The translations under genes were made by a program, and so were the position numbers. Below the pieces are notes generated by a model, which worked only from the letters and a program-made list of their open reading frames with translations, did not search any database and was not told the origin of the DNA. Shown one piece after another: positions 8,382 to 43,603 of a stretch of 64,000 nt of DNA. The DNA comes from Amphiscolops sp. MND2022. Lineage: Eukaryota. The DNA lies in NCBI GenBank assembly GCA_964187785.1, contig OZ076409.1:51462001-51526000 (forward strand), read 5' to 3'. How positions within the stretch are numbered: the stretch's first letter is position 1; each line of letters opens with the position of its first letter.

Positions 8382-8401
8382 TTCACAATAATACATCACT
8401 A

Positions 8402-9715: not shown

Positions 9716-9813
9716 TTAAAAAACATCTCACCCTTTCGCAATTTCACAATTTTGACAAATGTAATTACATTTGCCAAAATTGTGAAATTGCGAAAAGGTG
9801 AGATGTTTTTTAA
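9716..9813. repeat. 98-bp spacer-less palindrome
   Basis: Arms mirror about 9764/9765 with two mismatches. TTAA at both ends. Confidence 0.92.
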
Positions 9814-18769: not shown

Positions 18770-19537
18770 ACATACGTCTGAAAAAAGGAATAACGTATAA
18801 AGTCCTGAAAAACGCCCAAAACATCCATGAAATTGGAAGAAAACATAAGTCAATTACGATCTAAAACTAAAAAGTGATATGAAGTATAAAACGTGCCTCG
18901 GATATGTCCCCTTTTTTTGGTGCCCCGCGGCCCCTTGGACCGATTATATTCCCATCTTGCTAACCGAGGTCGAACAGGAGCAAAGACCTAGCCGGAACAG
19001 AGATATTAGTGGGAGCTGGTCTTTGCGCTGGCGAGGGCGAGCGCGCATTCACTGCATATGTCCCACATTACCATTTTTTCGCTTGCAGGAAGTCTTCTTT
19101 AGAAACAGGAAAAACGTCTAAAAGATTGCTATTCCCGGAAAGTGGTTTTTTAGGCGTTATTCCCGTTTTGTATTTAGATGTTATTCCGCAGAACTTCTTC
19201 CCGCTGCCACGTGTTTTGTTGATTTTTTGAAACTTTAGACGTTTTTGCCAATTTTAGACGTTCTTTTTGTTTTTCAGACGTAAATGATGATTTTTTGACA
19301 TTTTAAACGTCTGTCATTTGTAGACGTTATTCCCCTTTTTAGACGTTAATCCGCGTTTAGACGTTATTTCGCTTTTAGACGTTATTCCGCTTTTAGACGT
19401 TATTCCGCTTTTTAGACGTTAATCCCGTTCATATCAGATTTAGAAGTTATTCCTTTAGACGCTCTTCCCGGTGAACTTTTAGAGGTTATTCCCGGTGAAT
19501 GTTTAGACGTTATTTCTTAGACGTTAATCGTGTTCCC
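18770..19537. mobile_element. Foldback-like element with TTAGACGTTATTCC repeat arms and the shared structured core (18891-19067)
   Basis: An 18-19-bp tandem array at ~19320-19530, inverted units at ~18775-18800, and a core homologous to 38171-38360 and 42493-42683. Left end undefined. Confidence 0.6.
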
Positions 19538-20789
19538 ATTTTTCGAAGTCGAAAATCGAGAAAGACTGTCATTCGAACATCGAGAATGATTTTGTCGAGA
19601 TCTCGACAACTCTTGAATTCATTTCCTGATATGTGTCTGTCGTCCATTTAAATATGGTACCGAATGTAGTCACTCTTTTGGGGTTACTGCTTTTGCATTA
19701 GACCGGTATTCAACATTTTTCTGTTGCACAATATTCTCATCCAACAATATGTTCTATATCAGGCTCTGCGCTACTAAATTGTAGGTCTAGAAATTTTTTA
19801 AATGAACAAAACTATTACAATTAATGCTAATAAAGCCAAAATCTGGAATTTAGAATCGATTCAAAACCCTACAAGCATCGCGAATCGAAAGTGGAATTGA
19901 CTGGTGGTTTTAGACGGTCTGAAGAATTGAAGTTGGGATGGAATGGCAAATAATTGAATATGACTCAATTACGTGGAAACGAAACCGAAATCCCGTCTCG
20001 AAGTACTGTGTAATGATGTTTTCGAAACAGATTTTGACAACATAGCAAAGATGTAGTTTAGATGTCAACTTTTCCTGGACGCAGGTAGTTTATCTCCAGT
20101 ATGTTCTCGACTAATTTCCCTTTGGTTCTCTCTGTCACTGATAAAAATCCTTCTTCTGAGGTTTCTGTTTAAACACCGATGGCACTCGCAATTCTGCCGC
20201 TTCCTTTAAGGCGGTTAAAACCTTGAGAAAACAAACACTTTGAGAAAGGAACATTGAGAAAACCTAAACTTTCTTTCTGGCACGACATATTCAACAAATC
20301 CCTCACACCCCTTCCATCAAACAACAATACGCCTTGCACAGTTGCAGACATGATTGAAATCCTGAAAAAAACTCAAAATATCTGTCATCGGTATAGTTCA
20401 CTGTCAGTGGACGTTCGGTAGCATTTTGACAACGGACATAGGTGTGGATATTTTCAAGACTGGAATAAAAATAATCGAAGTCAGGAAACATTAGATATCG
20501 AGGGAGAAAACAACGATCCCAAAATGCTTGCTGATCTATCCGAACTACATCCCTCAGATCGCCTTGAAACCATCATAACTTATCTGAAGACTAATTCACT
20601 CCCTGGATGGAGAAGATCAAAAGTTGAAAGAAAGTCTTAAAAGACGAGAAGAAAGGAACAAAGAAGATGAAATGAGAAAATCAATTAAGTGTAAGTCAAT
20701 TAGTTTTTGTTTTTCTGTACTTTGACGCATCGCTGAGTTCACTCTTGCGTATGCTGCTTGGTGTAGTTGCACAGAAGCTCCTTTTACTT

Positions 20790-23088
20790 ATCCTTGAAAA
20801 TTTCGCACTGTAAAGCCTGCAAGAGAAACATCAGCTCAAAAGACTTTGTCTCCCACTGTCTGGTATGTGGAACTAAAATGCAATTGAACACCACCTGCAC
20901 AGGTCTATCAAACGTTGCACTAATTGGCTACAAAGAACTAGATGGTCGTGTCGCCTTTCTCTGCGACAACTGGTACTATGTCGAAAGTAGAAGAAAAACT
21001 GAGAATTGGACACCAAACAATGTAGTAACAAACTGAATGAAAAACGCGATAGACTAGAGCGGAGTATTGAAAAATCTATGGACACTAGAGAAAAAACTGC
21101 TTCTGAAAAATGCGAAAGTCGCTTTTAAGAAGTTGTTAATACTGTGAATGAGAGAAAAGATTGAACTCAAAGTCGATGCTTTTCCGAAAAGAATTGACTC
21201 GAAGGGTCAGTCTGAGAAACATCACAAAATTTTATCAGGTTGTCAAGCTCTCGCGTACAGGGTCTACCTGAAGCCATGACCGAAAGTAACGAAGAAATCG
21301 ATATACTTGCAAACGAAAAATTGAAAGAGGTAACTTACGAAATAGGAGTTGAAGTCAAAATTGACAAAATTCAGAGACTAGAGAGTTTTGAGAGAGAACA
21401 CACTACTCCAAGATACACAATTGTCACACTGAGCAACAATTGGGACATGCGAATAGTTCTGGCCAAGAGCTCTGAAAAACTAACTAGAATGAAAGAGATG
21501 GGCATACACCTTCTTCCTGCACTTTCCGCCGAAGACGAGAAACGGGAAAACTTGTGCCTAAAAAACAGCGAGAACTCTTGCAAAACGGCATTCTGCTATC
21601 GCTGCTGAAAGTAAGAAACTTCCATTTATTTTTGTACGACAGAAACAATGAGTTGGAACGCATTCGGTCGACGGAGATTGCTTGGCTATCAAACTTACAT
21701 TGCATACTAATCAAGACACGAAGTTTGATTGATACCGAGCGAAGTATTAAATTAGCAACTGCGATTAGTATTAGTCCTTTCGAGGCACTGTGTTTGACAG
21801 AAACATGGATCGTTGCAAATGTGAATGATGCTGAACTATACCTCAATAACTTCAAAAAATTCGCAATGGAAAGAGAACCCACGAAAACCGGTGCTTCAAA
21901 TCATTGTGGAGTACTATTTGCTATCAACAAACACATGCCGGTTTCGAAATTGAACATCAAACTTCAATTGTGTTGCGTAGTTGCGTACTTGTTCAATTGG
22001 AAACGCCAATTCCCATATGCACTTTTTATCATCCTCCAAAAAAGTGTCCATACAGATACACAACTGCCGGTTTTACTCTTTTGACTACTTTTTTGCTTCT
22101 TCATAAGCACACGTCAATTATACTATGCCAAGATTTAGGTTTTCCCACAATCTAATTGGAACGCAAATCAGAACACGAATTGGCAAGAAAATGATATGCT
22201 AATAACATTGGAACAGCCCAACGCCGAAAAGATTGTACATGTTCCAACATGTGGCAGAAACATCCTGTTTGTGGTCAATGCCCATTTTGTCTGCGCAGAA
22301 ATCTATGTAGACACTAGATTTGAAAATGCATGACTTCTCAAACCATAAGCTATTAGCCATGAAAAAGCCAATATTTGAATGCTACTACAGTTTCGGATCA
22401 GCTGATTACGATGCAATTCAAGAAAAATTAAAAACAAGAACATTTCAACAAGTGTGTCATATCAACGTTAACAGGATGAAATTGAATACTGCAACAGTAT
22501 AATAGATCAATTTGTACCGGGAAGAACAGGACATCGACAGAGCTCACCCATTTGGAAGTCCTCGAACACCTCCAATCTTTTGAAACACCTCCAAGCTCAG
22601 CGTGAGCTGTACAAAGCAAAACCGACTTCTTACAGAAAACAGAAGTGAAAGGAGCTGAAAAAGACTTTACTAGAAGAAGCTGAACGTGACAAATCCGAAT
22701 ACCAAAAAGTTTGTTCTGAACCGAAATACCATCTTCTTTTTCAAACATTTCAAGTCTATGAATAAAACTGCCAAGATTCCAGACAAACTAAGACTTGGCG
22801 AGGAAACTGTCTCGAATGTTTAGGAGAAGGTTGAGTTATTCAACCGTTTCTTCAAATCGGCCTTTTCCCTCAACTCTTCTGCTAAGTCAGTAGTTTTAAA
22901 TCCGAACCACGACCAAGAGCCTACACTCACAAACTTTTCCAAATTGAAGAAAAGTATCACGTTGGTTCTTGAGAATGCAGATATTACCAAATCTAGAGGA
23001 CATGAAGCGAAACCTGCTGATTTTTTTTTCAAAAAATAGCTAAACCAAGGAGTCACCATCTGCATCTGATATTTAAAGCGATCAAGCG
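20790..23088 (+). mobile_element. Decayed CR1/L2-like LINE (PHD-finger ORF1 and APE endonuclease), cut by the assembly gap
   Basis: CKAC..CLVC..C..LCDN PHD remnant; RVQGLPE..PRYTIVTL ORF1 motif; APE motifs RSL, LCLTETW, GVLFAIN, YHPP, DLGFPTI, SNH. Multiple disruptions. Confidence 0.8.
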
Positions 23089-23288
23089 NNNNNNNNNNNN
23101 NNNNNNNNNNNNNNNNNNNNNNNNNNNNNNNNNNNNNNNNNNNNNNNNNNNNNNNNNNNNNNNNNNNNNNNNNNNNNNNNNNNNNNNNNNNNNNNNNNNN
23201 NNNNNNNNNNNNNNNNNNNNNNNNNNNNNNNNNNNNNNNNNNNNNNNNNNNNNNNNNNNNNNNNNNNNNNNNNNNNNNNNNNNNNNNN
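23089..23288. other. Assembly gap (200 N)
   Basis: Run of N. Confidence 1.
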
Positions 23289-24139
23289 AATTGGTCAACT
23301 TCTCGCAACTCGGACAGATTTCTAGCAATAATAGGGAAAAAAAAATTTGCAAATGGACAGATTTCTAGCAATAAAAGGGAAAAATAAAAATTTTTGCAAA
23401 ATGTTTGAAAAAGCTCCAAAACTGTTTCAGAAAGCAGTTTGTCCCTTGTAGTGTTAAAGTTTGGTGAAAGGGTTTAAAATAAAACTCGGCTTCATTATTT
23501 CTTTTGCAGTTTGTATGAACTCCTCCTATTTTACACAACATGTTATTCTACTGAGTAACCATTATTTCTCGACTTTTTTCTAATTCTTCGACTTACTTAG
23601 ATGTTTTCAAATTTGTCAGCAATTGCTACTGATGCCATAGAAACCTAGAGAAAACATCTGAGGCATGATATCCAAGGTAAAAAAAGAGCCAGGATTTTAA
23701 AACATGCGTTTCATACAAGTAAAGGCAGTTGAAAATGTTTCGGAAATTATGACGAAAGGAATAAAGTTTACAAAAAAACAAAATGAGAACTATTTTACCA
23801 TTTTAAAAAAAGTCTATCACGTTGACTCAAACATTCTTGTGATGCAATCATATAATTCCTTTGCAAATTCAATATAGTAAAACTGTAAAAGTTTTATATT
23901 CATAATACGATTACCGCCCATCATAAATTAAGTTTTTTTAATATAGTCAATCTAACTATCTAAGTCATGATATTCAAAGTAAAAAGTTGTCAGGATTTTA
24001 AAACAAGCATTTCATACGGGTAAAAGCTTTTAAAATGTTCAGGAAAGATATGAACAAAATTTTCGAGAATGAAAATGAGAACAGTTTTCAACATTAAAAA
24101 AGTTCTAGCAATTTTGTTGAATAATGTTGAATAAAAATC

Positions 24140-25480
24140 ACTGCCTCGGGAACTTCTTGTTTACGTTGATCCAGGCAGCCTTTACCTTGTGGTATATCTT
24201 GTGGGCAGACACTTTTCTCAATTGCGGTTGTAATTCCGTCAAATTAGCTTCAACTTCTGACTTTTGGATTGTCGGTAGTGCCATATGGAAAAAACTGCAT
24301 GCTATTTTTTCTTTCTCTGTCCAAGGCTTTTTAGTACTTATGAATTGTTTCGTTCTTTAATATATAATATTCGTTTTCTCTCTAAAACGGCAGGGGTATT
24401 CGAGGTTTTCGGGGTTTTCGGTGTTTTTGGTGTTTTTGGGGTTTGCGGGGTTCGCGGAAAATCAATACAGTCATCGAGGCTGTTGTCTGAAATGTCCTCG
24501 TCCATGCCGTCGTCGTCTTCTTCTTCTTCTTCAGCTTTCACCCTCTTGCTGAGGGTGCGCTCTCCTCCCGTCTGGTTCTGCAGGCGCGGAGGTGTCGAGC
24601 CAGGATTATGGCTGCAACTGGATATTCGCATTGAGGGCATGGGACACATCTGACCATGTATTTTCTGGACTGTGGTGCTTCGGGGGCGGAAGGGCAACAC
24701 TTCTTCCCATGTCTTGCGTAGTTTGCTGACTGGATTAATTTTCCGCACTTGCTGCACTGGGTCGAGGACCCGACTTTTTTTCTCCTTGGCATCTTTTTTG
24801 GTGGTTTTTGAGCTTGTTTTCGAATTTGAACTCGGTTTGACATTTTCCGCAATTAAATGATGTGGTCGCTTGGCGGTGCATGTGTTTGATGTGGATGCTT
24901 AATCCTCCCGCGGTTCTACAGATCTTCTGGCATTCAGGGCATGTAAGGTCTCTCCGGGTGATTGTCATGTTCCTGAGCGTGTCCTGAGCATTTTCTCTGT
25001 TTCTGTTTCCTCGGCTAGTTTCCCACTTTGCTAGGTGGTCGTTCCGTTTCCGGAATATTTCTTCCCACGTTTGTGGTTGGCCATGAGGACATCTAGATTT
25101 GTGGGGTCAATTCCCGCTTCCTTCACATTCTCTCTTCTTCTTTCCAAGGATCTTTAGTATTTCTGAGTGTTTTCATGCTTTTAATGAATAATATTCGTTT
25201 TTTCTCTGAAGTGGCAGGTGTGGTCGAGGTTTTCGGAGTTTTCGGTGTCTTCGGGATTTGCGGGGTTTGCTGGGTTCGCGGAAAATCAATGTTGTCATCG
25301 AGGCTGTTGTCTGAATTGTCGTCGTCCTTGTCGTCGTCGTCGATGCCGTCGTCGTCGACGTCTTTGTCGTCTTCCAGATTCCTGGCACGCTTTATTGCCG
25401 ATCTGCTTACGTCATGGGTTGAATTCAAGGACGTCCGTTGGTAGTTTCTTGTCTCGGAGTTTCTCTGACGACCTCCTCCT
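24140..25480 (-). pseudogene. Frameshifted C2H2/C2HC zinc-finger protein with a duplicated acidic/TPKT block and Myb-like W motif
   Basis: CPECQK..HIKHMH, CGKC..HQKRC, CSKC..HGKKC and CPQC..HLRAC in shifting frames. The block DDxIDFPRT-(TPK)n-RIL-PW occurs twice (24320-24530 and 25130-25380). Confidence 0.65.
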
Positions 25481-25663
25481 CAGTGCCCTCTTCTTCCTCC
25501 TGCATTTGCTCAGGCTCCTCTGTCACTGTCCGCAGTGTGTTGCTGTATATATTCAATACCGAAATGGTCGGCTTCAGTGACTCCTAAAATCATTAACACA
25601 TTGTGTGAACAAGAAGTAAATTACACAATACGTTAAACACACAAGTTTTGTTTAAAAAATGTT

Positions 25664-27084: not shown

Positions 27085-27815
27085 TTCAAAAAGTCCTTCA
27101 AGTTTCTAAGGTCCTTCTCAGTCAGCAAACGCCTTGAATTGATGCTCCTTCAAATCCGTCTTTCTTTTGCAAATAAAGTTTAAAAAGTTTGTTCGTCCCA
27201 TTTCTAGCCGTTCATTTCCGTGTTCCGTGCAAGAGTAAACACAAGGCTCTGAACAAGCAAAAATTGTCTTTTGAAGGTTGTCTTGTGTTTTGTTCAAATG
27301 TGAGGCAGTTGACAGTTCGATTTTTCAGTAGAGGCTCAGACAGCACAGCTTCTTTACAACCCATCGGAATATCTCTGAGTAGCGCTGCAAATATTGTCAC
27401 ATTTGTCAGTTTAAGGAATCTCCACTTTGTGTTGACTCGTTTGACTCAATGACATCTTTCCCAGCAAGCATTTTTCAATGTGTACTAAGTCGTCCCGAGT
27501 ACTAAGCAATTCGGACTTCTCCAACAGAATATTATTCTCGTGTGCATACAAATAACAACAGCTAGCGTCTTCGATATTTTTCAAAACAAAGCTAAAAGCC
27601 AGATTAATTCTAGCTGCACATTTTAGTTGTTGAAACACATAGTTCAGCTTTGAAATGACTTTTTGTAGCACTGAGAGAGTCCAATGCAAAATTGAAAACT
27701 CTGTGACAACATTTTCCAACTGCGAATCAACAAGGAAATGTTCACAGGCATGTAGCTCTTCCTTGAGATTGTCATCATCGATCCCTGTGGTGGTATTAGG
27801 AACGTTAGTTGTACA
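27085..27815 (-). pseudogene. N-terminal region of a Maverick protein-primed DNA polymerase B (catalytic core absent)
   Basis: LKCAARINLAFSFVLKNIED..YAHENN..LLE and DNFCLFRALCLLLHG resemble Maverick pPolB N-terminal motifs. Divergent orientation to the capsid module. Confidence 0.55.
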
Positions 27816-29429
27816 TTTCCCAAATGAAATCTGACGCGTTGTAAAAACTTTACTTCAAAATCAAACACGTTGCAAAAATTTAACTCTAAAATTTGACAAG
27901 ACGAACAAATTTTACTTTGAAGTCTGACAAGACAAAAATTTTACTTCAAAATCTGACAAGACGTGAACAATTTTGCTTCAAAATCTGTCTTTTTAATAAT
28001 GTACCGCTAATGGAAAGTTTGTCGTTTCGACGGAGTGAAATGGGTAAAAACCTGTCTTTTTAAAAATAAAAACACCTTCAAAATCTGTATTTTTAATTTT
28101 TTCATCTCGTGTAAAATCTGACGCGCTGTATAAATATTGCAAAAAATCTGACATGTTGTTAACTTTTCGCTTTGAAATCTGACACGTAATAATTTCACTT
28201 TAAAATCTGACAACAAAGTGTTTTTCTTGCAAAAGTGTGCATTTTAATTTCACTCAAGTATGAGCAAGTGTTTCGACCTTCGTGACATAGTATGGGATGA
28301 AGTTTGAACTATTGGAGCTTTCTTGTTGCTCTTACTAGCAGTCGTTGCAACCGCAGCTCTCATTGGTCTATTTGTTGTCGTGGTGAGACTTCCTATCAAT
28401 CTCTACAATCCACTTTTTGCTGAAAAAAAAACAGCGGTTAGTTTACAAATATTTAACTTTGAAAAATACTAAATTACTCTCATAATTTCTGTAAACATCT
28501 ACAAAAACAATCTATAATTTTTATCATTCCTCATTCAATTTTAGTCTTTAACTTAATCAATGCTTCCTGCAAAAACTGATCCACCCGTTTGTGTTGAAAT
28601 TGTCTTTTGCAACGAACTCAGTAAATGTCTCTTGTTTTTATTTACGCAACAGCCTCTTTTTTGCTATACTCAGCATTCTTTCAACCGTCTTGTGGCGTTG
28701 ATTGAATCGTGCAGCTCGTTCAATGTTTTCAAATACTTGTCCATTTTTGGTAACAATCTTTCCATCAAAGCGATACTGGAATAATGTATAAAGGCAGTCG
28801 ACCAACTGATATGTAAATTAAAAAGTGTCCCATTTTTGCATCAACTCATTATTATCCTTCTCTGCAAAGAGCAAAATGTGTTATTTAAAATTGAGAACGA
28901 TACATATGGAATTTTCGTGTTGAGCAACGCAATAGTCTTTGCTGACAAGATACTTTTCATATGTGTTTACAGAAGTGTGTACACTCTTTCTAGAGTATAC
29001 AGAGTAAAAGCTTGGAACAACTTGCATCATCACAGCAGCCATCGGAGCGTTGAGTTTTTGTTGAACAAACTGAATCTGAAAAGATGGAAGTGTTACCCTA
29101 AAAGGAATAGTCACGTGACTTCCATAAAAAAGAATTGCAGGAAAGATGACCTAATAAGGAAAGATGACATAAGAATTTTGAATGACAACACAAACATTAT
29201 CTTAAAAGGAAATGTCTTCCTCTTATGGAAAACGAGGTGTAAACATTTCCAAAAATGGAATAGTCACGTGACCAAAGTATTATAAAAGTATATTTTCAGT
29301 TCCAACCATAATTTCATTTTGAATCGGTAAACAAAAGTTGCTTGTTCCAGAACACAACACCGACTCTGACGATTATTACGATCGACCCTACTTTACCCAG
29401 AACTCACTCTTGTCAAGAAGCAGCCGCGA

Positions 29430-30480
29430 AATGGAATCTGCAATGAATGCAACTTCAGACAAATCAGTTTGCACAGACTTTGTGGACTTTGGCAAGCACC
29501 AAGACAGATTTGGACGCTTTTCGTGGACCAAAAATGAGAAGAATTACTCGGAAGTGCACTTCAAAGTCTTTTAAAAAGACATGCCAACGAGTTCAAGCGA
29601 TATCAATGTGTTTCGCTGGGTCAATACGACTTTAGGCAGTTCTTGCGGTTTCGAAATCAAATGATTGTTGCTGCCGACAACTTAACAAAGGAGGAAAATT
29701 TGCCTTACATCAATGTTGTTGGACTATCCAGAGACCCTGACGGACAACTGAAGCACGCTCACAAGGTTATTGAGGTTGCAGATAGGGCCAAGCGCAAAGT
29801 GTGTGTTACATTGCTGCTCAACAAAGAGGACAAACCCGAAACATCCTACCCGCAGATACGACTCTTTACACGCAGGACGGTGGAAGAAATATTTCAACAA
29901 CTTGTCTATGTGAACTATAAAATTGATGAATTTTAAAAATTTACTAGATGTAATGAAGTCTGTTTGTGATCAAGTGTTTGATAACAAACATCTTTGTAAT
30001 ATTGTTTGAATGAATCGCAAACTTTTTTATTACAACTTTCAGTTTTTCAATCAAGCTAGTGAGAATGAGTTGGAACATTAGAGAAAATAGAAACTTGTTT
30101 CTTAGGTTGAAAACAAAGGTGGGACTTTATCATTTTGTCATTCGAACACCAAAATCTTCTCCCACAAAATTTACTCTAACAATAGCCGAATTGCAACAAT
30201 TACTAGAGCTCGAACAAAACGAGGACGAAATTTCTTGCCCTGAATGGACAATTTACAATGGTAACAAACATTTTGCGTAGGAATTCAAACCGATAAAGAC
30301 CAAGTACACATTGTAGTGTATCGTTATCGCAATAATACCTACCTCAAGGATACTGAAATTGAATTAAAGCTAGCAGAGTACAAGCCGCTACTTGCTATAC
30401 GGTTGTATCTTTTAGGCTACTTGGATACATTATACAAGCAATGCATCGTATTGGATGAATCCACAATCCATAATTGAGTT
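29430..30480 (+). pseudogene. Two disrupted Maverick accessory ORFs, possibly PC4-like ssDNA-binding folds
   Basis: Repeated beta-strands plus helix pattern (YSEVHFKVF; QIRLFTRR..YVNYKIDEF; FTLTIAELQQL). TATAAAAG at 29281. Confidence 0.35.
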
Positions 30481-31705
30481 GTTCCCTGCCCGAAACGGAC
30501 GTACTGTTTCTAGTCAACGTATTTCGTTTTTAATCAGGGTTGAAGCTCCGCTTTACAAAGAATATTGTACAAAAAATGCTATATCTTAGCGCATGACATT
30601 TATTGGACGAGAACATTTCACTCCACGAATTGGACCACGAATTTCCTTTTGAGGAATTAATTAGTTATTCATACAAAATTCTCCGTTTTGCCAAAGTGTT
30701 CAGACTACATGCAATACTACATGACGCTGCCGGCGCTGTTTATTTGCACAAAGGCAAAGGACCGGGATACTGTTAAATGATTGGTCGAGGTCCAAACTCG
30801 TGTTTATTGAGTCACGTGACTGGACTTTTGTATTGTCTCTACTTGAAATTGTTTGCTCCCTCCATTTTCAATTTTGTAGACTTTTAGTCAGGTCGCTTAT
30901 TGTGTTGGAATCTGAACTTGCGGAAAAAGTGTAGTCAAGGAATTGGGTGTTTATATTGATGGACAAGTATTTGTGTATTCCTTTAAACCACCCAAAAATT
31001 ATCAACCAACACATCAAACACTCTGATGTACCCAAAACTTGCACAAAATTGATTGGAAAAGTGATTCACTGGACTATAGCTGTATCAACACCATGTTGGA
31101 TGAATTGCGACAAAACAGAACCGAGTATTTTGCAAAAGGATTGGAAAAGTTTACATTTTTGAGCACATTACTGGGTAAGTTTGTGAAAAACTTGGATGAC
31201 TATGGTTGCCCCAAGATTCAACGTTTAAACACTGACTGGTTGGCACTAACTATCCCTACAGACACAAAATCAATATACACTGGGCTGAGCGGAAAGAATA
31301 GCATTTGGAGTATGGACTGTGCAACATTTCAATTTGTAAATTTATTGTACGTCTTTGTATTCCTCATTCATATTATTTTAAAATTTTTTGTTCAACTGAA
31401 ATTTTTTCCATTGGAGATTCATTCTTACAGATACACTCTCACCTAGCAAGCTAGATGACAGAGACTAACCTCAACTTAGAAAAAATTGTTTTTGACGGAA
31501 ATAACTGTGAACGAAAATCAAGGACGTTCGTGGGACAATCCTACTCAAGATCAATAATTGTGTTTTTGTCCCAGTTTTTTGTTATTTTGCTGATATTTTT
31601 GCGTAGCTTTTAGAAAATTCATTGGGCAACAAGTAGTGAAGAATCTACAGTGTGTGTTGGAATTTTGTGTAGCGCAGCAGGAGTTATTGTTCCAACGCGG
31701 AGACT

Positions 31706-32413
31706 ATGACCAATTGATATCCACTAAAAACTGCGTCTTCCTTTCTATGGTTGGACAGAGTGAATCTCGGAACAACCGATTTACGAGTGGTTAACTAATG
31801 GAACTTTTCAGCCCAATTATGACAAGATTTACTTTTTTACCAATATTATCAATCACTACACGACAAAATGGAAAAAGAAATTGATTATTTCGAGTTTGTC
31901 AAGGGAGTGATTTTTGAATTGAATAATTCCTTGAAAAACAACGATACAAAATATCTCCTCATTTTTGACGATTCTTGTGAGGAAGTGTGCACTTCCAAAG
32001 AATTTGTCAAAAATGCCACGGCTGGAAGACACCGCGGACTTAGCACTTTATACATTAAACAGAACTTGTTTCACAAGAGCACTCTCGGACGCGATATTGA
32101 GCTACAAATTACACACATTGCATTGTTCAAGTCGCCTCGGGTTTTTCTGCAGATAAATACGCTTAGTATTCAACTAGGTCTAGGTTCCTCTCTAGTGGAT
32201 TTGTACAGAGATGCAATGTCTGTTCTTTTTGGTCATTTGCTAATTGATTTATCGCCGCGAAGAGACGATAGATTACGTTACTGCACAAATAGTGGAAAGA
32301 TTCCTTCAAAATTTTACGTACCAGAGAGTTTGAAGCATTTGACAACTTTGGACGATGAGCACACAAAATCTCTCTATTCTCCAATCATTTTCCAATCATT
32401 TTCCCGCAAGTGA
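31706..32413 (+). pseudogene. A32/FtsK-like genome-packaging ATPase
   Basis: Degenerate Walker A (MVGQSESR), Walker B LLIFDD, GRHRGLSTLYIKQNLF, IALFKSPR, LLIDL. 5' frameshift. Confidence 0.88.
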
Positions 32414-33079
32414 AAAAGTCAATTTCTCAAATCGTGTCCAAACGAGTTTATTCGATTTATAGGCGAGTGCATAGTAAACATACTTCGAGGAAACTTGCAA
32501 AGCGTAAAAAGACATCATGTTATTAAGTAAAAACGAGAGTTGAACTTACTCTCTTTGAAGCGGACTACATGGAAACAGAGATGAGATGTCTTGACGTCAG
32601 AGAGAGGTTTACAACTGGTTGATACCATTACGCCGTTTGTGATTATTCACTTGTCTTGATATGCAACAGTTTGTCCTTGTACCTGCTTCACTTCTCAACA
32701 AACTAAAAACAACAAAGTCCACGACGTTAAAAGTGGACCTATCCAAATATCACTCTCAACAAACTCCTACGTCCCAAGTTGATTCGCTGAAAAAGAATAT
32801 AAACAAAATGTGGTTTACCAAGGAGACTCCTTGGTTGACAAACTTTTAGCATCCCCACGCATACAGTTCTCTCTCTAACACTATCGTGCTAGACGGTACA
32901 GATACTAGAGAATTGTTGCAAGATTTTGTTCAACATTTGCGTAGAAAGAACGCTGACGTACCCGACATTTACTGTACTTTACTGGACGCAGCCGACATTT
33001 CTTCTAGTATAGCGCTCAACCAGAATGCCAAAGCAAAAGAGAGATTAAACTGGTTCCCTTTCATCTGAGCGACAAAATC

Positions 33080-33959
33080 TTCAAAGACTATATACACATG
33101 GTCCTGCAACATATTGCTCTGCGAGATCTGGCAAAGGCTAGCAAGCTACCGTTTTCCAAGGTTCGACTTTTTTTACATTCAAAAGACTCCTATACAAACT
33201 GTACACTTACAACGCAAGTTTAGACGTAAACGAGCATTTGCTAGATACAAGAATGAACCTTGGTGTATGGACTTGGCATATGTTGATAAACTATCAAAGG
33301 ATAACAGAGAAAAAGAGTACTTGCTAGTTCGCCAGGACGTGTTTGACAAAACAATAGACGTAAGAGGATTGAAAACAAAACACTCTAAAGAGGCACTTAT
33401 AGTCATTGCGCAAATGATTACCAAGCGGAAAAGACCACAACAAATTTGGGTTGACAAGGGAAAAGAATTTGCTTGTGAATATAAAAACTTTTTTTGCAAC
33501 AGAGAATGTATACAGATTTTTTCAGCAATGAGTGAAACAAAAGCAGCATTCGCCGAGAGAGCCATTCGTTCATTGAAAAACGTATTGTATCGCTACATTG
33601 AAGATTATGGATACAAGTATATTCACAAGTTGTCTCAATTTGTTACAACGCTGAATACGAGAAGGAATTGATCAATAGATATGAAGCCGTGCAGTGTTAA
33701 GAACTCTGAGTTTTTGGCTGTGCTATACAGTAAGCCAATCAGAGACTTTAACAAACCAAAGTTCGAAGTGGAATTCCGCGTCCGAATTTGCAAGCAAGAA
33801 TCACCGTTCAGAAAAGGATACAAGCCGCAGCTTACAAACGATATTTTCAAAATTATTGTACTTGCTACATGCAAACCACCCACATATAACTTACAAGATG
33901 AACAAGGTGAAGTTATTAAAGGCAAGTTTTATGAAAAGGAGTTGATTAGAGTCATTTAG
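33080..33959 (+). pseudogene. rve (DDE) integrase of Maverick
   Basis: WCMDLA, YLLVRQDVF, IWVDKGKEF, KAAFAERAIRSLK, FRKGYKPQ, IKGKFYEKEL. Stop at 33669. Confidence 0.9.
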
Positions 33960-33961
33960 AT

Positions 33962-34767
33962 ATGGATTCATTTACAAAAGTGTTGGTTTCTAATGCGTCA
34001 TCTGGACTGTTTCCTGACAATAGAATCAGTTCTTTTACAATTTTTTTTTACCTGATCAAGTCAATTTGGATGGTCAATGGGAGGTTGCAATTTGGGGAAT
34101 TTCCTACCCCTCAATGTACCAGAATGTTACAGATGGGAAATTTTTATTTTTTGACGCAATTTACTCCAAGATGACAACTGCCTACTACTTATAACCTGGG
34201 TTGTAATCTTCCGTACCCGACATTGTGGAAGCATGGAATTTGCTTATGCAAGGCAGAAACAATCACAATGAAAATTGCATTACTGTTAAAGAATCTCATC
34301 GCACGCAAAAAATTGAACATTCACTCATTAGTGACGACTCGAGCCTAGTCATTTTCAGTTCAGACTTGGGAAATACATTTGGTGGCGATGTTGGAGACAA
34401 CAAGGGAGTTTTGATGCGACGTAAGGGACCTCATGAGCCAAAGTTTGCGTACGATATTGTTTGTATTCATTCGCTAATGATTTACACTGATTTTGCGGAG
34501 TACAACATTGTTGGAGACACAAAAGCACCCCTATTACGTTGCTTCCTTCTCATTTACAAGCTGAAATCCGGAGACGTAATCACTAATGGACAAAACATAA
34601 ATTACCAAACTTTTAGTAACCTTCAATTTCGTCGACTACTGAAAAATCCCTTTCATAGTATACATATTGATCTGAGGGACACCTCGGGTGAAAAGACTTC
34701 ATTTGTCTCTGTTGGAATCACAAGTCTTGTGCTAATGTTTAGAAATGTTTTTGACATTCATTACTAA
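33962..34767 (+). pseudogene. Minor capsid protein (penton-like)
   Basis: LVSNASSGLFPDNRISSFT N-terminus; MIYTDFAEYNIVGDTKAPLLR and IHIDLRDTSG C-terminal motifs. Frameshifted. Confidence 0.85.
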
Positions 34768-34783
34768 CGAAAAACACTGCGAA

Positions 34784-35145
34784 ATGGTTGCCTCAAGAGA
34801 ACTTGAACTACCGTATTATAGAGGAGTGACAAGGCAACGCTGAAGAGGATTTGGAGCAATTGCTCAAGTTTTTGGGAGAACCGCAGTTCCTTTTGTTTAA
34901 AAAAATTTAACGTCCCAGCTGCACGAAGTGTTGGAGCTGACTTGTTGGAGTTTGCTGTCTCTGAAATGGCAGAAGTATTTAGTGGAAAGAAAAATTTGAA
35001 CTCGCCTGTAACAAGTGTTGTTAAAAAGACATTGAGAAAACAACTAGGTGGCGGTAGCAAGAGAACGCGCAGATTCATTCCTACAAAATCCACCAACATA
35101 AATAGTCGCTTGCGCAGAGACATTTTAACAAAACTTTCACGCTAA
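34784..35145 (+). pseudogene. Small basic Maverick core/membrane-active protein
   Basis: YYRGVTRQR*RGFGAIAQVFGRTAVP and KQLGGG motifs, located between penton and hexon. Confidence 0.55.
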
Positions 35146-35151
35146 ACATGA

Positions 35152-35446
35152 ATGCACAAAACAATTTTCGGTTACCAAATTTTTGTGACCGTTTCTGGTA
35201 GTGGTGGCGGTAAAGTGACAGTTGTCGATGACGTACTTTCCTCGCATGAACAACAAATTTATCCTACAACGTCATTGGATGAAAACAGTATCGAGTTTGA
35301 ATTTCAAACTGATCGCAACAATAACACTGATTTGCGTCAAACGTATTTGTCTTTGGTACTGAAATTGGTGAAGCATCGTTGATTTTATTCATAGAAAAAA
35401 GAAGTCAAAAAGGAACACAATGAGGCAGAAGATGAAAAACTGATGC

Positions 35447-35487
<41 letters not shown>

Positions 35488-36519
35488 TTCCCTTAATTAC
35501 CCATGTGAACAACATCATGCGCTCTATTTTCTTCAATGCGGAAGATTAAACATAAAATCAGCAAGTTTACAATTCAGATGGACTTTATGCTCATAAATTT
35601 TACATTTCCAACAGTTTTAAAGGAGCCATCTCTGAGTACAAGGGAGTGCTACATTGTGAAGTTATGACTTCGAAGCAAATCCAGAAGACGCCATGGATAA
35701 CCGCTTGGAGGATCCATTCTTTCCAAGAAGAATGAAAATTTTCTCCAGACCAAAAAGATTTATTTTGTGTGGTAAAATGGGTGTGGATTTTTTCACCACT
35801 TCAGAGCTATTGTACCCAAACATGAAAGTTAGAATCCGACTCATTAGAGCTCGACCCAATTTTTACATGATTAGTGACAATCCTTACGTTAGCCTTGGAA
35901 TTGTGGATTGTTCGCTTTATAATCGCCGTATTAAATTCGAAGACGCCACTCAAAGACGATTATCAGAAGAAGCGATATCATAGTGTACAGTCCTGTAGAA
36001 TACAACTACTTGGACACAATTGCCAAAACTTTTATCACCGCCCGAGAAAATCAATTTATACAAGAAAACACTTTCAATAGTGCACCCATCCGACTAATCG
36101 CCATAGCAACGAACACAAATTCTGCCTCTACTGGTTCTTTTACTGAAAATCCCTACTTGTATCAGCAGTTTGGATTGAGACACATTAGAGTACTGGGCGG
36201 GGGTCAATCTGTTGTTGACTATGACACGTCCGATAATTGCCGTCTCTATGTTACAACAAGGAGAGCAATGAGCTTTCATGACGATTTACCGTCAATCCCA
36301 ATTGCGAATTTCAAGGATCACTATGTGCTCTTGTTTGATTTGACATCAATGCAAGACACAACTGAACATAACCACTATCCGGAATTGATTGGCGAACAAT
36401 TGCGACTGGAACTCAACTTTAATGAAGCGCTCGAAAGTGTAACAGAAGTCATTATATTGGGTGAACGAATGTCGTCGGTTGCAGTCGACAAGTGTGGCGT
36501 TGTCGGTAAAAATACCTAA
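35152..36519 (+). pseudogene. Major capsid protein (double jelly-roll, hexon-like)
   Basis: IYPTTSLDENSIEFEF..DLRQTYLSL; LLYPNMKVRIRLIRARPNF; PIRLIAIA..TGSFTENPY; LFDLT; LRLELNF. Several frameshifts. Confidence 0.85.
35448..35483 (+). repeat. (GAC)12 microsatellite within the major capsid gene
   Basis: Direct observation. Confidence 0.95.
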
Positions 36520-36520
36520 A

Positions 36521-36946
36521 ATCGATGGCATTGCATTGCGACAGATTATTGATCGTTTTCCTCTCCTCAAGTATCGGTACATCGGCTCATTTCCTTCTGA
36601 TTGTGTCCCTAAGCTTCCAAATGATACATTTGCCATTGTCAATACTGAATCAAGTTACATGTCTGGCGAACACTGGGTAATGATTGCCATGTTTAAACAG
36701 CAATTGTGTTTTGCAGACTCTCTCGGTGGATCATGCATTTTTCTCAAGCAAGACTACCACAAAATGGTTCCAGTAAAGTTGCAGTCACCTTCTAGCGTTT
36801 GTGGATTCTATGCCATATATGCAGCTTTTCATCTCTTCAAGTTCCAGCAAGAGCAAATTACAGGATTTCACGACATTAATGTACTCTCTTATATTAGTAA
36901 TTATATGGAAACCATGCTAATTGTAAAGTGCAGTTTATACATGTGA
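36521..36946 (+). pseudogene. Adenain-like cysteine protease
   Basis: IVNT..GEHWV, FADSLG and LQ..SSVCGFY carry the H-D-Q-C catalytic residues. Frame is open but the start codon is lost. Confidence 0.88.
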
Positions 36947-37521
36947 TTGTAGTACATTTATACATTATATATTAGTTTTTTTGATCATTTAAACATGATT
37001 TTTTTTTCTCAACACATAGCAGTCAAGTAATTAGCGCAACCTCTATGGCGGATAAGTTATTCCCGTGGCGGATAAATTTTTGCAGTGGTGGATAAAATAT
37101 GACGCGGGCGGATAAAATATTGCCGGGGGGGGGTAAAATCTTTCTCGCGGGCGGCGGTTGGCAGCAGCCAAAAAGCTTTCCTACCCAAAATCTCAGTGCC
37201 CAAAATGTCGCACATTGCCGAAAAACCCCTATAACCTATCTTAAAACACTCCCGAAGCTATTCCCTATCTTTATACATTGAGCACATATTTATACATTAG
37301 CAAACAATCGGTTACAAACCTTTGAGTCAAGTCGTCAGCCAATCAGGAGCGAGCACGACCCGAGTAGGCAGCCAAAGGGTATACGCCCCAACTACACGAC
37401 AAACAATCGAACGAGTCCTGAGGGTGGAAGAGCCTTCTCGGCTATGGGCTCCAGTCAGCTCGCTATAGCCTATCTTAAAACATGTGGGTGTTCCACCTGA
37501 TCTGCTCACCATCTGTCTACT

Positions 37522-37715
37522 GACGGGGTTTCACAAACATCATTAATTTTGGGTATCAAGTATTCATCAGGGGGATCTGTCAGTCTTTAGGATTTCTTTT
37601 CAAATGAACGCTTGAATTAAAAAGGGTGTAGCTTAAGTATTACTTCGCACCACCTGTGCCTGCTTTCAATTTTTTGTCCGATTTCTCTTTTTTCCTCTCT
37701 CAATTGACATAGATT
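37522..37715 (-). mobile_element. 5' fragment of a CRE-like non-LTR element
   Basis: Diverged duplicate of 39561-39750. Confidence 0.75.
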
Positions 37716-37982
37716 CTAAGACATGCTATCCGGCACATTTTGCGGACAACTGGCGAAAATTTTGCCTACAGCGATAAGACGAAGTCCACCATCGGGCTTT
37801 TTTAGCGCAATTAGTTTCGCACCAAAGAAGTACGGCAGCAGATCGAAAGGTAAATTTCCTTCGAGAATCACATTCGCAACATTTGTCAGGGCTCTGAGAA
37901 AAATCAGTCCAGTTTGCCCGTTCGATTTTGCAGACAAATCTTTCAAAACGTGGGTCGAAATGCCATCCAAAACTGCACTAGC

Positions 37983-38484
37983 AGGCTTCGGGCATTAAGT
38001 GCGATTTAATAAGTTCGAATTTGAACCAGTGCAATAAGTTCGAAAGGAGTAGTTTCGAGACACCAAGTTCGAAATTTCATATCGGGTTAAAACGGTTTAA
38101 ACTGGACATCCTTCACACAAGATCCTGAGAGCTCCACCGCCTAGAATCTAGAGGAATCTAAAACTGAAATGTGTGGCATAACCGGTGTATGCACGCTCGC
38201 CCTCACCGTCGCAAAGACCAGCTCCCACTACCATCGCTTCGCGAACTCTGTCCCCGCTAAGTCTTTGCTCCTGTTCGACCTCGCTTGGCAAGATGGGAAC
38301 ATAAGCAGCCCAAAGGGGCCGCGAGGCACTAGATGAAATGTGGAAGTATCAGAGGCACGTTTTCTAGTTAGTTCAAAATTCGAACACAGTGACTCGAACT
38401 TGTTCCGGTTTTTGGAAAATTCGAACTTAGTCAATTCGAAATTAAAACTTGAACTTATGCGTTCGAACTTATTACCGTGCCTCG
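37983..38484. mobile_element. Foldback-like element with AAGTTCGAA arms and the shared core (38171-38360, minus strand)
   Basis: CTAGC duplicated at 37978-37982 and 38485-38489; removal restores colinearity with the other CRE copy. Inverted arrays AAGTTCGAA / TTCGAACTT. Confidence 0.8.
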
Positions 38485-38896
38485 CTAGCGTCGTTGGGAA
38501 AGGACATGAGAGCCTTGTGCACAAAGAACTCCGAAGTTGGAAAACAATCGATATCTGTGGGGTCCGGAAAAGAGGAAGTTCCCCTCTGCGGAAGTTTCAA
38601 CTCGAGTGCCGCGTAAGTGTCGACCATGATATCTGCAATCTTGTCGCCTACTGCCATTCTGATTCCTGCCTTAACATTACCTTCGTCCTAATTAGTTCAT
38701 ATGGAACGCAGTCGTCGATATTACTCGCATTTCTGTTGCGGCTTTCTGTCGCATTTCAATTTTTCTCAATGACACCTTCCCTAATACGCTTGTTGATATC
38801 TGCACTTAGTGATTACCTCTGGCGTTTATCTCGAGGTGGTTTTTTCTTAAAAAACCAACTTAGTTAGGAGAGCAATTGGCATCACAAGGCGATATT

Positions 38897-39554
38897 TGGT
38901 AGAAAGTAAGTTTGTAGAGAGCGAGTTTGTAGAAATATCTTTGTTTAAAATTGATAGTAAGATTGTAGAAAAAGGGTGGCTAAAAATAGGTCGAATTTTT
39001 CTGGTCGAAAGGTCAGAGGTCGAACCTTTTGATCAAATTGCAGGGATCGAATGGAATGTGGTCGAATTTTATCGTATTTGTTGTATGGCTCGGTCGCTTC
39101 GCTCCCTTCGCCAAGTAGCAACATTGAGGCATGCCATATGGCACGTCGCTCCGCTTCGCTTCGCTCCTGCATTCAGGGCACTAGGGATATGTGAACATGT
39201 CTTAATACGTCATAAAAAATTCGATCCGAGTTGTTTCGATCCCTTTCAAAAATTTGGTATGTTGACCTGAGGACTAACTCTGATTTTCGATCCCGTTCCT
39301 TCGACCTATTTCCGCCCACCCGTAGAAAGAAATTCTACAAGCTTACCCACCCATAGTAAGTTTGTAGAACTCTACTTGCTTCGTAGAACTTGCTTTAAAA
39401 AACTTACAATCCGAATGTAGTCGGTAATTTTGTAGAAAACAACCTTGTAGAAGTAAGTTTGTAGACAAGTGATAGTGAGTTTGTAGAAAAGAAATCTACA
39501 ATTTTACCAATCCAATGTAAATTTGTAGAATTCTACAAACTTACTATAATCCCA
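38897..39554. mobile_element. Foldback-like element with AGTTTGTAGAA repeats
   Basis: Ends TGGTAGAAAGTAAGTTTGTAGA / TCTACAAACTTACTATAATCCCA. ATATT duplicated at 38892-38896 and 39555-39559. Confidence 0.7.
38974..39321. mobile_element. Nested Mutator-like MITE
   Basis: TIR GGGTGG..AAATAGGTCGAA / TTCGACCTATTT..CCACCC. 9-bp TSD GTAGAAAAA / GTAGAAAGA. Confidence 0.75.
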
Positions 39555-40344
39555 ATATTCGACGGGGTTTCACAAATATCATTCATTTTGGGTATCAAGT
39601 TTTCAGCTAGGGGGATCCGTGAATTTTTATGAACTCTTTTCAAGTGAACGCTTGAATTAAAAGGCTTCTACCTGAAGTACTACTTCGCAGCACTGGACCT
39701 GCTTTTAATTTTTCTCCTTTTTCTCTTTTCCTCTCTCAGATGACATAGATCGTCGCCAATAGTTGTGCCCCGTAGGTCATCATGTAGGGGTGAGATGACA
39801 CACACCCGTGATCTACAATAAACGATAAAGGACTGCTACCACTACACATGCCAGCCACTATCTCACTAGAGGACTACAGACTGCACTTCCTTCAAAACTT
39901 TTATTCTAAAAACCAAGAAACTCCAATAAACCACAAAGCTTTTGGCTACTGAACTATTATTCTAAATTTACTCCAGTTACAAATTGTTAGACTCAACATT
40001 CTCCCGCAAATAGGGGCTTAATCTCACTAGCCTAATTGTTGTTATAGACTTGTTGGATAGCTTCAGAGATGGCAATGATTTGAGTTTGAGACAACTGGAC
40101 AACATCTCTGACGCTGTTTTGTTGGTTTGTCGCTGCACTTGGTCTGAAAGAACCATCACAACCCGGTGAGATAATTCCATTTTTATTTCATTTTAACAAT
40201 TCAAGGTTTTGTTCTATATACGGATGCTTCACTGTTGTGATTGTATTTTGGGGAGATTGGCATACACCCAAATGTGGTATTCCTGCAAATGGTTAGGTTT
40301 CGAGGTTGAGTTGTGATGAAAAACAACGAAACCTGCATCGCTCC

Positions 40345-42273
40345 GAAGTGTCTGAACGACTGCGTTCCATTTGCACTAAATTAGACGAAGGTAATGTTAC
40401 GGCCGGAATCAGAATGGCAGTAGGCGACGACAAGATTGCAGATTTCACGGTCGACAACTACGCTGCCCTTAAGTTGAAACATCCGCAGAGGGAAACTTGC
40501 TCTGTTCCGGACCCCACAGATATCGATTGTTTTTCAACCTCGGAGTTTTTCGTCCACAAGGCTCTTTTGTCCTTCCCCAACGGCTCTACTGCAGGGTTGG
40601 ATGGCATTTCGCCCCAAATTTTGGACGATTTGACTGCCAAGTCGAACGGGCAAACTGGACTGAATTTTCTCAGAGCCTTAACAAATCTTGTGAATGTGAT
40701 TCTCGAAGGAAAAGTTTCTTTCGAACTTCGGCCGTACTTCTTCGGTGCGAAACTAATTGCGCTAAAAAAGCCCGATGAAGGACTTCGTCCTATCGCTGTA
40801 GGCAATACTTTCCGCCGATTGTCCGCAAAATGTGCCGGATACCACGTCTTCGAATCACGTAAAACAAGATATGGAAATCGACAAGTAGGTGTAGGTACCA
40901 AAAGGGGGCGCTGAATTGGCCTCACATGTTCTCCGTTGTTTGATAAAAAACCCTCAGCCCAAAGAAAACGTAATTTTGATAATTGACTTTAAAAAGGCTT
41001 TCAATTCGATAAACCGGCAATTCATGCTAAAGAAAGTTTTTGAAATACACCCTGAAATTTATAAGTATTCACACTCTGCGTACAGTCAGCCAAGTTTTCT
41101 TTTTTACGGTGATTCAGTAATCAAATCTTGTGAAGGGACCCAGCAAGGAGATCCTGAGTCTCCAGCTTTGCTTTCGGATTCCATTCAGGATCTGATTGAC
41201 AGTTTGGAGTCGAAAATAAACTTATGGTACCTTGACGATGGAAATTTAAGTGATGATTACCGAACCGTTTTGAAAGATCTCAAAAAATTTGTTGAAGCGG
41301 AAAGAACGCTGGGACTCGAAATTAAACCCACGAAAAGTTTAATTGTTTTCCCTGGTGACATCACTGAAAAACGAAAATCGACAATTTTAGCATCTTTCCA
41401 AAAACTTTGCCCCGGGATCAAAACACCAAAGAAATATGAACTTATCATTCTTGGTTCACCGCTCGGTCAAAAATCACAAGCAGACCTATTGGAAAAGAAA
41501 ATTAATGAACTGGAAAAAGTTAACGAGATTGTTGAAAAACTAGATGCGCACTATGGTTTTTTATGTTGAAAAATTGCTTCAGTTTGCCAAAGTTGTTGTA
41601 CTTCCTGAGAACCAGTACATGTTTTAATCATCCAGCTCTCTTGGAGAAATATGACAAAACCGTGCGCGACGGACTTTCCAAAGTGTGTAACGTGAACTTC
41701 GACGATATTTCGAGTACTCAGCTGGCTCTGCCTGCTGAGATGGGTGGTCTTGGGGTTTCATCCGCATCATTATTAGCACTTCCCGCCTTTTTGGCCTCAG
41801 CTTTTGGTGCGAGTGATTTTCTCACGATGATTTTCTCGGAAACATTCGAAGATGTTTCGTTTACAAAAACGCTTGAGAAGTGGTTGAGTTTGACGAATGA
41901 ACAGGAAAGTCCCCTCGATGGAACTCAGAAAACTTGGACACAACCTGTCTACGTCAAAACCGCCCAAGATTTGATTTCTAGAATGGATGACAAACGTTCG
42001 AAAGTTTTCAACGCTCATCAAGGCAAATTCGGGTCTCAATGGCTGAACGTCGTTCCTTGCAAGAACCTAGGCCTGAAACTTGATGATCAGCAACTTCGAA
42101 TTTCAATTGGTTTGCGTCTCGGTGCCAACATCTGCGTTGCGCATACGTGCCACTGTGGTAAAAGAGTTGAACGGGACGGTTTACACGGTCTTTCTTGCAC
42201 CAAGAGTGCTGGTCGCTTCTCACGTCATGCTACTCTCAATTCCCTCATAAAGCAGACGTTGGGATCTCTGGAC
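40345..42273 (+). mobile_element. CRE-clade RLE non-LTR retrotransposon, RT part (5'-truncated, frameshifted)
   Basis: LRPIAVGNTFRRL, IDFKKAFNS, GTQQGDP, WYLDDG, LGSPLG, LP..MGGLG, CHCG..GLHGLSC..RH. Two frameshifts (~40910 and ~41560). Confidence 0.9.
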
Positions 42274-42856
42274 GGGTACAAGACATATTGCTTAATTCCA
42301 TATTGCTCAATGCCATATTGCCTAATTTTGTGGACATATTGCTTAATAATTTTTAAGCAATATGGATAATGCCATATTGCTCAATTTTGTGGACATATTG
42401 CTTAATAATTTTAAGGCAATATGGATGTGTTTTCACATTGAGTAATGAGTGATGAATCGAGTAATGCGTCGGATCTAAGTGACACTTATAACACGTGCCT
42501 CGGATATGTCCCCATTTCCTCTGGTGGCCCGCGGCCCCTTGGGGCCGCTCATATTCCCATTTTGCTAAGCGAGGTTGAACAGGAGCAAAGACCTAGCGGG
42601 AACGGAGATCGCGAAGCGATCGTAGTGGGAGCTGGTCTTTGCGTCGGTGAGGGCGAGCGTGCATACATCGCATATGCCCCACATAATATTTTCGCTTTCA
42701 GAACACATATTAGATCATAAAGGCGTTAGACCTAAGTATTTTAGATAAAAATAGATCTGAAAGTTAGACCTACCGTTGAATCTAATTCCATACGACACAT
42801 ATCATACTCAGAACACATATTAGATCATAAGACCTATTAGATCATATTAGACCTAA

Positions 42857-43569: not shown

Positions 43570-43585
43570 TCTAGGATAGTTTTTA

Positions 43586-43603
43586 TGGCGCCCCACAAGG
43601 GAC
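43586..43603 (+). promoter_or_regulatory. Candidate primer-binding site (tRNA-Lys-like), displaced from the LTR
   Basis: TGGCGCCCCACAAGGGAC matches the tRNA-Lys3 PBS TGGCGCCCGAACAGGGAC at 15/18 positions but lies 16 nt downstream of the LTR. Confidence 0.4.

Follow-up and report, generated by a model that had tools for sequence, protein, structure and literature searches.

Foreign DNA inside transposons with terminal inverted repeats (TIRs) has been described in several systems. In the Pack-TIRs of animals, filler DNA is reported to be captured by gap-filling or FoSTeST, and the breakpoints to lie preferentially inside the element (PMC8277862), while the cargo described for Pack-MULEs, which belong to the Mutator-like elements (MULEs), is GC-rich (PMC5861414). 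In Anolis, non-autonomous families are described as exchanging their central parts (PMC3014272), and internal exchange is described for maize Mu elements with divergent TIRs (PMC10401008). Here we analyze a window of 64 kb from Amphiscolops sp. MND2022 (contig OZ076409.1, positions 51,462,001 to 51,526,000; all coordinates below count from its first base), in which a non-coding, GC-rich core of ~200 bp (54-57% GC) occurs three times, each time between the arms of a different foldback miniature inverted-repeat transposable element (MITE). The locus is a real case of cargo common to several MITE families. Our tentative explanation, to which we assign a probability of roughly 40%, is that the core is non-coding cargo of foldback MITEs, swapped between families by template-switch repair and now decaying.

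Core copies and their foldback hosts

The three copies lie at 18886-19088 (+), 38169-38365 (-) and 42488-42701 (+), and will be referred to as copies 1, 2 and 3, residing in the hosts E1, E2 and E3, respectively. Self-BLAST pairs 18882-19077 with 38369-38160, 18885-19088 with 42487-42701, and 38169-38366 with 42684-42487, at E values of 8e-40 to 4e-62 and pairwise identities of 83.6-87.6% (ungapped columns; 183-198 columns). In copy-3 coordinates, the shared sequence extends from a TATAA-like stretch (42487-88) to CACAT (42684). The places named for the core in the original prediction are right; in copies 1 and 3, the homology reaches 17 nt further 3' than it had proposed, finishing in CAG. 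An unfiltered search with a profile hidden Markov model (HMM) and one with a covariance model both recover just the three known copies, with no fourth in the 64 kb. Around the core we find no conserved target-site duplication (TSD), the best flanking repeats being 4-5 bp long and differing from copy to copy.

As had been claimed, each copy is bordered by inverted arrays of a different short unit. In every host, the left and right arms are related in inverted orientation (3/3 hosts, at a score reached by 0/100 shuffles), whereas between hosts none of the 12 arm pairs displays significant similarity (scores reached by 30-100/100 shuffles, lowest 13/100). In all three hosts the core sits between the arms and not within them, the hosts being foldback-type miniature DNA transposons. 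Such central placement in 3/3 cases would have a chance of ~0.01 if the core fell at random along its host, a rough figure that uses estimated spacer shares. Since short repeats of this kind are described as transposase binding sites (PMC5499845), the different arm units imply different transposase families.

The TTAGACGTTATTCC unit makes up both arms of E1, as inverted copies that have decayed in the left arm (18692-18890, +) and as an array in the right arm (19150-19537, +), which terminates in ...GTGTTCCC with a clear right end at 19537. The outer left end and a TSD were sought for E1 and not found, the left arm being decayed. Elsewhere in the window, a small foldback at 2188-2309 has arms related to those of E1 (0/100 shuffles), an AT-rich spacer and no core.

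E2 (37983-38482, no strand assigned) is a foldback MITE made of AAGTTCGAA units, which starts with AGG and sits inside a copy of a non-LTR retroelement. Its TSD can be read in two ways, either as an exact 5 bp (CTAGC) with two unpaired terminal bases and the element end then at 38484, or as 7 bp with one mismatch (CACTAGC/CGCTAGC) and symmetric AGGC...GCCT ends. In inverted orientation, the outer end of E2 at 38476-38484 repeats the 9 nt with which the core begins (CGTGCCTCG); the test of arm versus core is not significant.

E3 offers the clearest view of an insertion. Its left arm (42274-42427, +) begins with a GGGT terminus, contains CCATATTGCTTAA units and is preceded by the TSD CTCTGGAC at 42266-42273; its right arm (57879-58050, +) lies 15 kb off, beyond a Gypsy insertion, and is followed by CTCTGGAC at 58051-58058. 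Overall, E3 spans 42274-58050, with 18-bp ends that have 3 mismatched positions, a GG start and an exact 8-bp TSD. To the left of E3 the interrupted retroelement reads ...GSLD, and to the right LPSLLEPRG.... Because its homologues P0012 and P0014 run uninterrupted across the insertion point, as an empty site would, E3 represents a clean cut-and-paste insertion. Of the two TSDs proposed earlier, the one of 8 bp is real, although its right copy lies 15 kb away behind the Gypsy element, while the one of 5 bp (CTAGC) is ambiguous with 7 bp.

That the hosts come from different superfamilies is not demonstrated: the TSD of E3 is clean, that of E2 is 5 or 7 bp, and E1 has none left. The difference in TSD length is no proof, as GG-type ends, short subterminal repeats and 8-9-bp TSDs suit Muta1/Tm1-type MULEs and Merlin alike. 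Only E3 combines 5'-GG ends with an 8- or 9-bp TSD, as expected of Merlin, E2 starting with AGG; relative to the 8-10 bp of MULEs, the TSD of E3 has 8 bp and that of E2 5 or 7 bp. Phantom reportedly has TSDs of 7-12 bp. For these hosts, ends and TSDs alone do not tell MULE from Merlin, and no MULE transposase partner was found among the window open reading frames (ORFs) scanned (15/47 ORF-sized pieces).

Two further copies of the core were detected in a public sequencing run (X1) that shares a small fraction of the window's words and of which two contigs match 42150-42900. In X1 record 2, the match extends over 42488-42685 (20 differences), between unrelated letters on either side. X1 record 1 follows the retroelement as far as the final base of the TSD of E3 (12 differences in 124), after which come 162 other letters, the core from 42510 to 42676 (10 differences) and again unrelated letters. 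Since the end of the TSD is the exact limit of the match, no letter there being ambiguous, record 1 would most simply be read as a retroelement copy without E3 that has another core-bearing insert nearby; a diverged E3 arm is also possible, if less simple. Short pieces of the loose ends of X1, compared with the window, gave no convincing match, and the core of record 1 has not changed significantly more slowly than its flank (10/167 vs 12/124, P 0.27). X1 is possibly another species, and the foldback context is established for the window copies alone; its difference table leaves out changes near contig ends, so that 7/10 and 17/20 differences are listed, one of them an indel. The five copies thus display five different flank sets. 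With 3/3 window copies in unrelated foldback spacers and 2/2 X1 copies with other flanks, the notion of a cassette swapped between TIR families, as put forward in the original prediction, fits.

Proposed movement of the core between families

We hypothesize that the core is not mobile by itself and would be carried as cargo by elements in which short repeats form long arms, with GG-type ends and 7-9-bp TSDs, probably Muta1/Tm1-type MULEs or Merlin. One master copy may have multiplied inside a single MITE family. Upon breakage or excision of elements of other families, repair synthesis starting from their arms could switch template to a core-bearing element and thereby bring the core into the spacer. 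The new chimera would then be mobilised by the transposase recognising its own arms, and the copies would have decayed afterwards without visible constraint.

What fits transfer by template switching is that the core is central in 3/3 hosts and has no TSD, that its 3' ends are ragged, that two hosts share the 17-nt extension and that E1 has a core-less relative (2188-2309). The 3' ends of the five copies lie at 42676, 42684, 42685, 42701 and 42701 in copy-3 coordinates, and the 17-nt piece beyond the core in two hosts is what co-transfer of donor spacer would predict. Decay is visible in the changes from the majority sequence, which number 6, 10, 10, 1 and 10 in the five copies (1-8% of the 125 positions reported for all). 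The divergence is star-like, with one near-master copy. Four minority states are shared, each pairing different copies, as recombination or homoplasy would give.

Several observations weigh against this explanation. The five copies have five flank sets, yet four of them share a 5' end within 2 nt (42487-88, against 42510 in the remaining copy); neutral filler would be expected to have scattered ends and not to turn up again and again in so many hosts. The exchanges in the papers cited above are described for members of a single superfamily or for elements whose TIRs are related. No parental copy of the core, be it a parental gene or an autonomous element, was found in the window. In addition, the 12-bp bulged stem GCAAAGACC-T-AGC / GCTGGTCTTTGC (42585-42642, +) is intact in 5/5 copies, with 0 broken cells versus 4.7 expected (P 0.005, or ~0.05 when corrected for ten helices), and the majority sequence has an RNA folding z of -1.9 and contains two perfect short hairpins (found in 1.2% of 5000 shuffles). 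Passive cargo explains poorly why a single piece, its 5' end being the same, recurs across so many hosts; this keeps alive two rivals, a mobile element without TSD and a selected module.

In the first of these, the core would be a tiny mobile element of the rolling-circle or tyrosine-recombinase type that leaves no TSD and prefers foldback spacers, a reading we consider unlikely. The 5' end common to 4/5 copies, the five flank sets, the missing TSD and the star-like divergence around a near-master copy (1 change in 125 nt) are all as such an element would show; three different 3' end positions and the complete absence of free-standing copies (0/3) in a transposon-dense window are not. An imperfect direct repeat near both core ends (11/13 nt) may also count in its favor, as one X1 copy aligns from within the first repeat to within the second. 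However, this repeat is matched by 30/300 shuffles, and homology extends past it on both sides. Non-autonomous Cryptons are defined by terminal direct repeats of 4-6 bp and the lack of a TIR (PMC3212892). The best sub-terminal inverted repeat of the core has 5 nt and is equalled by 251/300 shuffles, compared with the 12-15 bp expected of HINE/DINE-1 elements, and neither TT/TT flanks, TC...CTRR ends nor a 3' palindrome before a T run were found at the core junctions.

An ordinary short interspersed element (SINE), which would here have landed by chance in three MITEs, had been named as an alternative in the original prediction. A length of ~200 nt, the high GC content and the star-like divergence would agree with a SINE, but the copies contain no Pol III head of tRNA, 5S or 7SL type and no A/B boxes, we found no poly-A, simple-repeat tail or own TSD, and self-BLAST reveals no similarity to the ends of the long interspersed elements (LINEs) in the window. 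As 3/3 copies also lie in foldback spacers, this alternative is unsupported and largely refuted.

The same prediction had considered one modular family, of which the repeat arms were rewritten fast around a fixed core. Foldback arms are indeed unstable, those of E3 containing duplications of 59 bp and 15 bp, and 7-9-bp TSDs with GG-type ends are compatible with a single superfamily. We nevertheless hold this reading to be very improbable, because the cores are within 1-8% of the majority sequence while the arms and termini of the hosts share nothing. Fast erasure would be unexpected for arm repeats that are described as transposase binding sites (PMC5499845), and a core-less relative of the E1 arms already exists at 2188-2309.

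Sequence variation, structure and possible function

The second rival concerns function. In this reading, the core is a selected cis-acting module of several transposase families, acting either as promoter, 5' exon and short intron or as a structured RNA or single-stranded DNA (ssDNA) signal that boosts transposition. We regard it as rather unlikely, even if recurrence of the core in five different contexts is what selection would produce. The 'structured' cassette of the original prediction is a related idea, which is possible and receives no support from the tests run.

The structural motifs described earlier are present as claimed. The stem GCAAAGAC/GTCTTTGC occurs in 3/3 window copies, and the hairpins GCGGCCCC-TT-GGGGCCGC and GATCGC-GAA-GCGATC are perfect only in copy 3, at 42.5 kb, the latter being lost through an 11-nt deletion in copy 1, at 18.9 kb. 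In contrast, 'structured' proves a weak label for the core as a whole. No copy folds significantly better than its shuffles on either strand, whether as RNA or as DNA (z +1.07 to -1.48, 12 tests). Variable columns are spread evenly along the core (3-7 per 20 nt) and are equally frequent in paired and unpaired columns of the best fold (30/122 vs 17/69, 24.6% each; P 1.0). Scoring of 61 pairs in five copies yields 23 broken, 11 one-sided and 1 compensatory cell. All of this argues against a selected module, as does the result for the three window copies, in which 0/61 pairs covary, and 0/55 in an independent consensus fold. Lack of covariation was the outcome named in advance as speaking against a structured RNA or ssDNA signal; with five young copies from one master the test has low power, and one stem is kept beyond chance.

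This 12-bp stem counts in favor of the module, as it is intact in 5/5 copies and its two changes both yield G-U pairs. It hints at past constraint on one stem, no more: in the two other named stems breaks occur at the expected frequency, and all three jointly give P 0.08. In one X1 copy, the GAA-loop hairpin has undergone a double change from C-G to T-A, which likewise counts for the module, given a genome that lacks CpG depletion. The observed/expected ratio of CpG is 0.94 in the whole window (0.87-1.12 in repeats), indicating that the repeats have not undergone methylation-driven CpG loss. Precedent for an RNA motif in a foldback MULE is provided by the histone hairpin described for Tm1-HH (PMC3169594).

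As possible signals of a promoter with intron, the core has a TATA-like start, and a GT at 42647, followed in all three window copies by a pyrimidine run and CAG, delimits a putative 55-nt intron (GT...AG) at the 3' end of copy 3 (42647-42701, +), an unproven look-alike. The putative splice donor is GC in copy 1, however, and is lost in one X1 copy.

Known RNA families give no further help to the module. In the window scan with Rfam 15, no family matches the cores at E<=1, the best value being E 2 when copy 3 is scanned by itself and copy 2 giving none, contrary to what a described structured RNA would lead one to expect. The copies contain no hammerhead core (CTGANGA) and no box C/D motif or B-box, whereas the ANANNA box is common on both strands. 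A hepatitis delta virus (HDV)-like descriptor, run with no positive control, matches 0/6 strands of the core when strict and 1/6 when relaxed (1/3 copies), and matches elsewhere in the window too. Look-alikes of 7SK, SRP, Y RNA, H/ACA, telomerase RNA, twister and the histone stem-loop were dropped as they lack Rfam support.

Other origins were considered and rejected. A VVGAGL-containing open frame is present in two copies, but nearly all differences between the two alter the residue and copy 1 is frameshifted (judged by eye), so that there is no conserved reading frame and a coding origin is dismissed. The core is no collage of arm units either (1/30 comparisons at <=15/300 shuffles), and neither the core nor its flanks pair in a guide-like manner with the host insertion sites (12 comparisons; best 49/300 shuffles). 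Pattern scans returned 0, 1 and 0 hits in viral contigs, 0, 2 and 1 in genome contigs, and 0 and 0 in metagenome contigs, none of them a homologue of the core: 4/4 loci examined match over the pattern alone, and 2.2 chance hits are expected for the genome-contig scan with two hits. BLAST of the core against phages gave a single match of 30 nt (E 0.2).

A more far-reaching possibility is that the core, a non-coding unit of ~200 nt under constraint in its 12-bp stem, spreads across unrelated foldback families as a hyperparasite of cut-and-paste transposons in eukaryotes, or as an accessory they share; it would either insert itself into spacers or, as RNA or ssDNA, boost or steer mobility. We consider this distinctly unlikely. 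With non-coding cargo exchanged between MITE families as the preferred reading, the core would presently have no function.

Genomic setting and comparison with known systems

With a GC content of 38-40%, the window consists of eukaryotic DNA dense in repeats, among them a Gypsy-like element, copies of a non-LTR retroelement, decayed ORFs and many small foldback repeats. The Gypsy-like long terminal repeat (LTR) retrotransposon (42857-57878, +) is a later insertion into E3, outside the cassette, and has LTRs that are 98.7% identical. It contains an ORF of 2444 aa followed by two further frames, and its four flanking bases are unequal (CTAA / TAAA). Copies of the non-LTR family, which encodes a reverse transcriptase, are located at 37400-38715, 40297-42273 and 58059-58520, and this one family harbors both E2 and E3. 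We take it to be CRE-like. The copy that hosts E3 (40297-42273, +; RVT_1) resumes at 58059. Two of the three window hosts, as well as X1 record 1, thus lie within a single family that covers ~5% of the window; the two window cases are neighbors and not independent of local history.

Between E2 and E3, a further foldback MITE with GGTCGAA units, GGG...CCC ends and a 9-bp TSD (one mismatch) is found at 38974-39321, nested in another foldback with AGTTTGTAGAA units (~38897-39552). Its GC-rich center of 130 bp contains three GCGAAGC motifs and bears only a marginal likeness to the core (9-22/300 shuffles), which is missed by the profile HMM and the covariance model.

Among the remaining features, 27400-37000 is a decayed cluster with pieces of an integrase (rve, E 4e-6) and an A32-like ATPase (E 0.002) next to unnamed ORFs, presumably Polinton-like. 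An internally repetitive dispersed family has four copies of 70-90% identity (8400-8930, 14100-14710, 17460-18070 and 62040-63920). A near-perfect palindrome of 98 bp at 9716-9813, below gathering against two miRNA models, is probably a tiny MITE. The window also contains a satellite-like array of 171-bp units in ~5 copies (3637-4599), a tandem duplication of 590 bp at 96% identity (7202-8381) and a single-exon host gene at 59011-59565, which belongs to Pfam PF04603 and takes its name, Mog1 family, from its hits.

In the open full-text literature, with most subscription papers and the repeat databases outside this scope, we found no report of a non-coding core shared by foldback families with unrelated arms. 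The closest parallels each cover part of what is observed here. Like the core, the cargo of animal Pack-TIRs and plant Pack-MULEs is described as foreign, GC-rich, non-transposase DNA inside a TIR element, captured by template switching with center-biased breakpoints (PMC8277862, PMC5861414). The cargo presented in these reports consists of identifiable host fragments, mostly captured once, whereas the core is a single piece, with no parent found, that recurs in at least three unrelated arm families. As to the hosts, the foldback MULE Tm1-HH of Meloidogyne is reported to have arms of 13-15-bp repeats, an 8-10-bp TSD and a conserved non-coding interior with a hairpin (PMC3169594). It is described as one TIR family with a histone stem-loop, while the core hairpin has a 2-nt loop and no histone match in Rfam. 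E3 and the element at 38974-39321 resemble the Muta1-type MULEs (PMC5499845) and Merlin (PMC8101967) as described, with GGGT ends, short subterminal repeats and TSDs of 8 or 9 bp; E2, starting with AGG and having a TSD of 5 or 7 bp, differs from both.

Movement of central parts among elements with different ends, leading to the founding of new families, is described for the hobo MITEs of Anolis (PMC3014272) and for the Mu heteromorphs of maize (PMC10401008). The partners in these accounts have related TIRs, whereas the arms of the window hosts have no detectable similarity. If the core is passive cargo, it would serve as a natural marker for the passage of DNA between transposon families whose ends are unrelated, a process so far argued mostly from related elements, and repeat libraries would wrongly merge or split such families.

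Two further systems bear on the core itself. The non-autonomous Helentrons HINE and DINE-1 are described as short, non-coding and free of TSDs, with small palindromes (PMC4067079); the core differs in having no subterminal inverted repeats of 12-15 bp, no 3' palindrome before a T run and no TT flanks. Fanzor1 is reported as a single cargo taken up by unrelated DNA transposons of five superfamilies (PMC3627910). Fanzor1 is a protein gene, whereas the core has neither an ORF nor a guide-like match to the host insertion sites. Were the core selected or self-mobile, it would represent a non-coding counterpart to such Fanzor-like cargo, a module carried by unrelated transposases.

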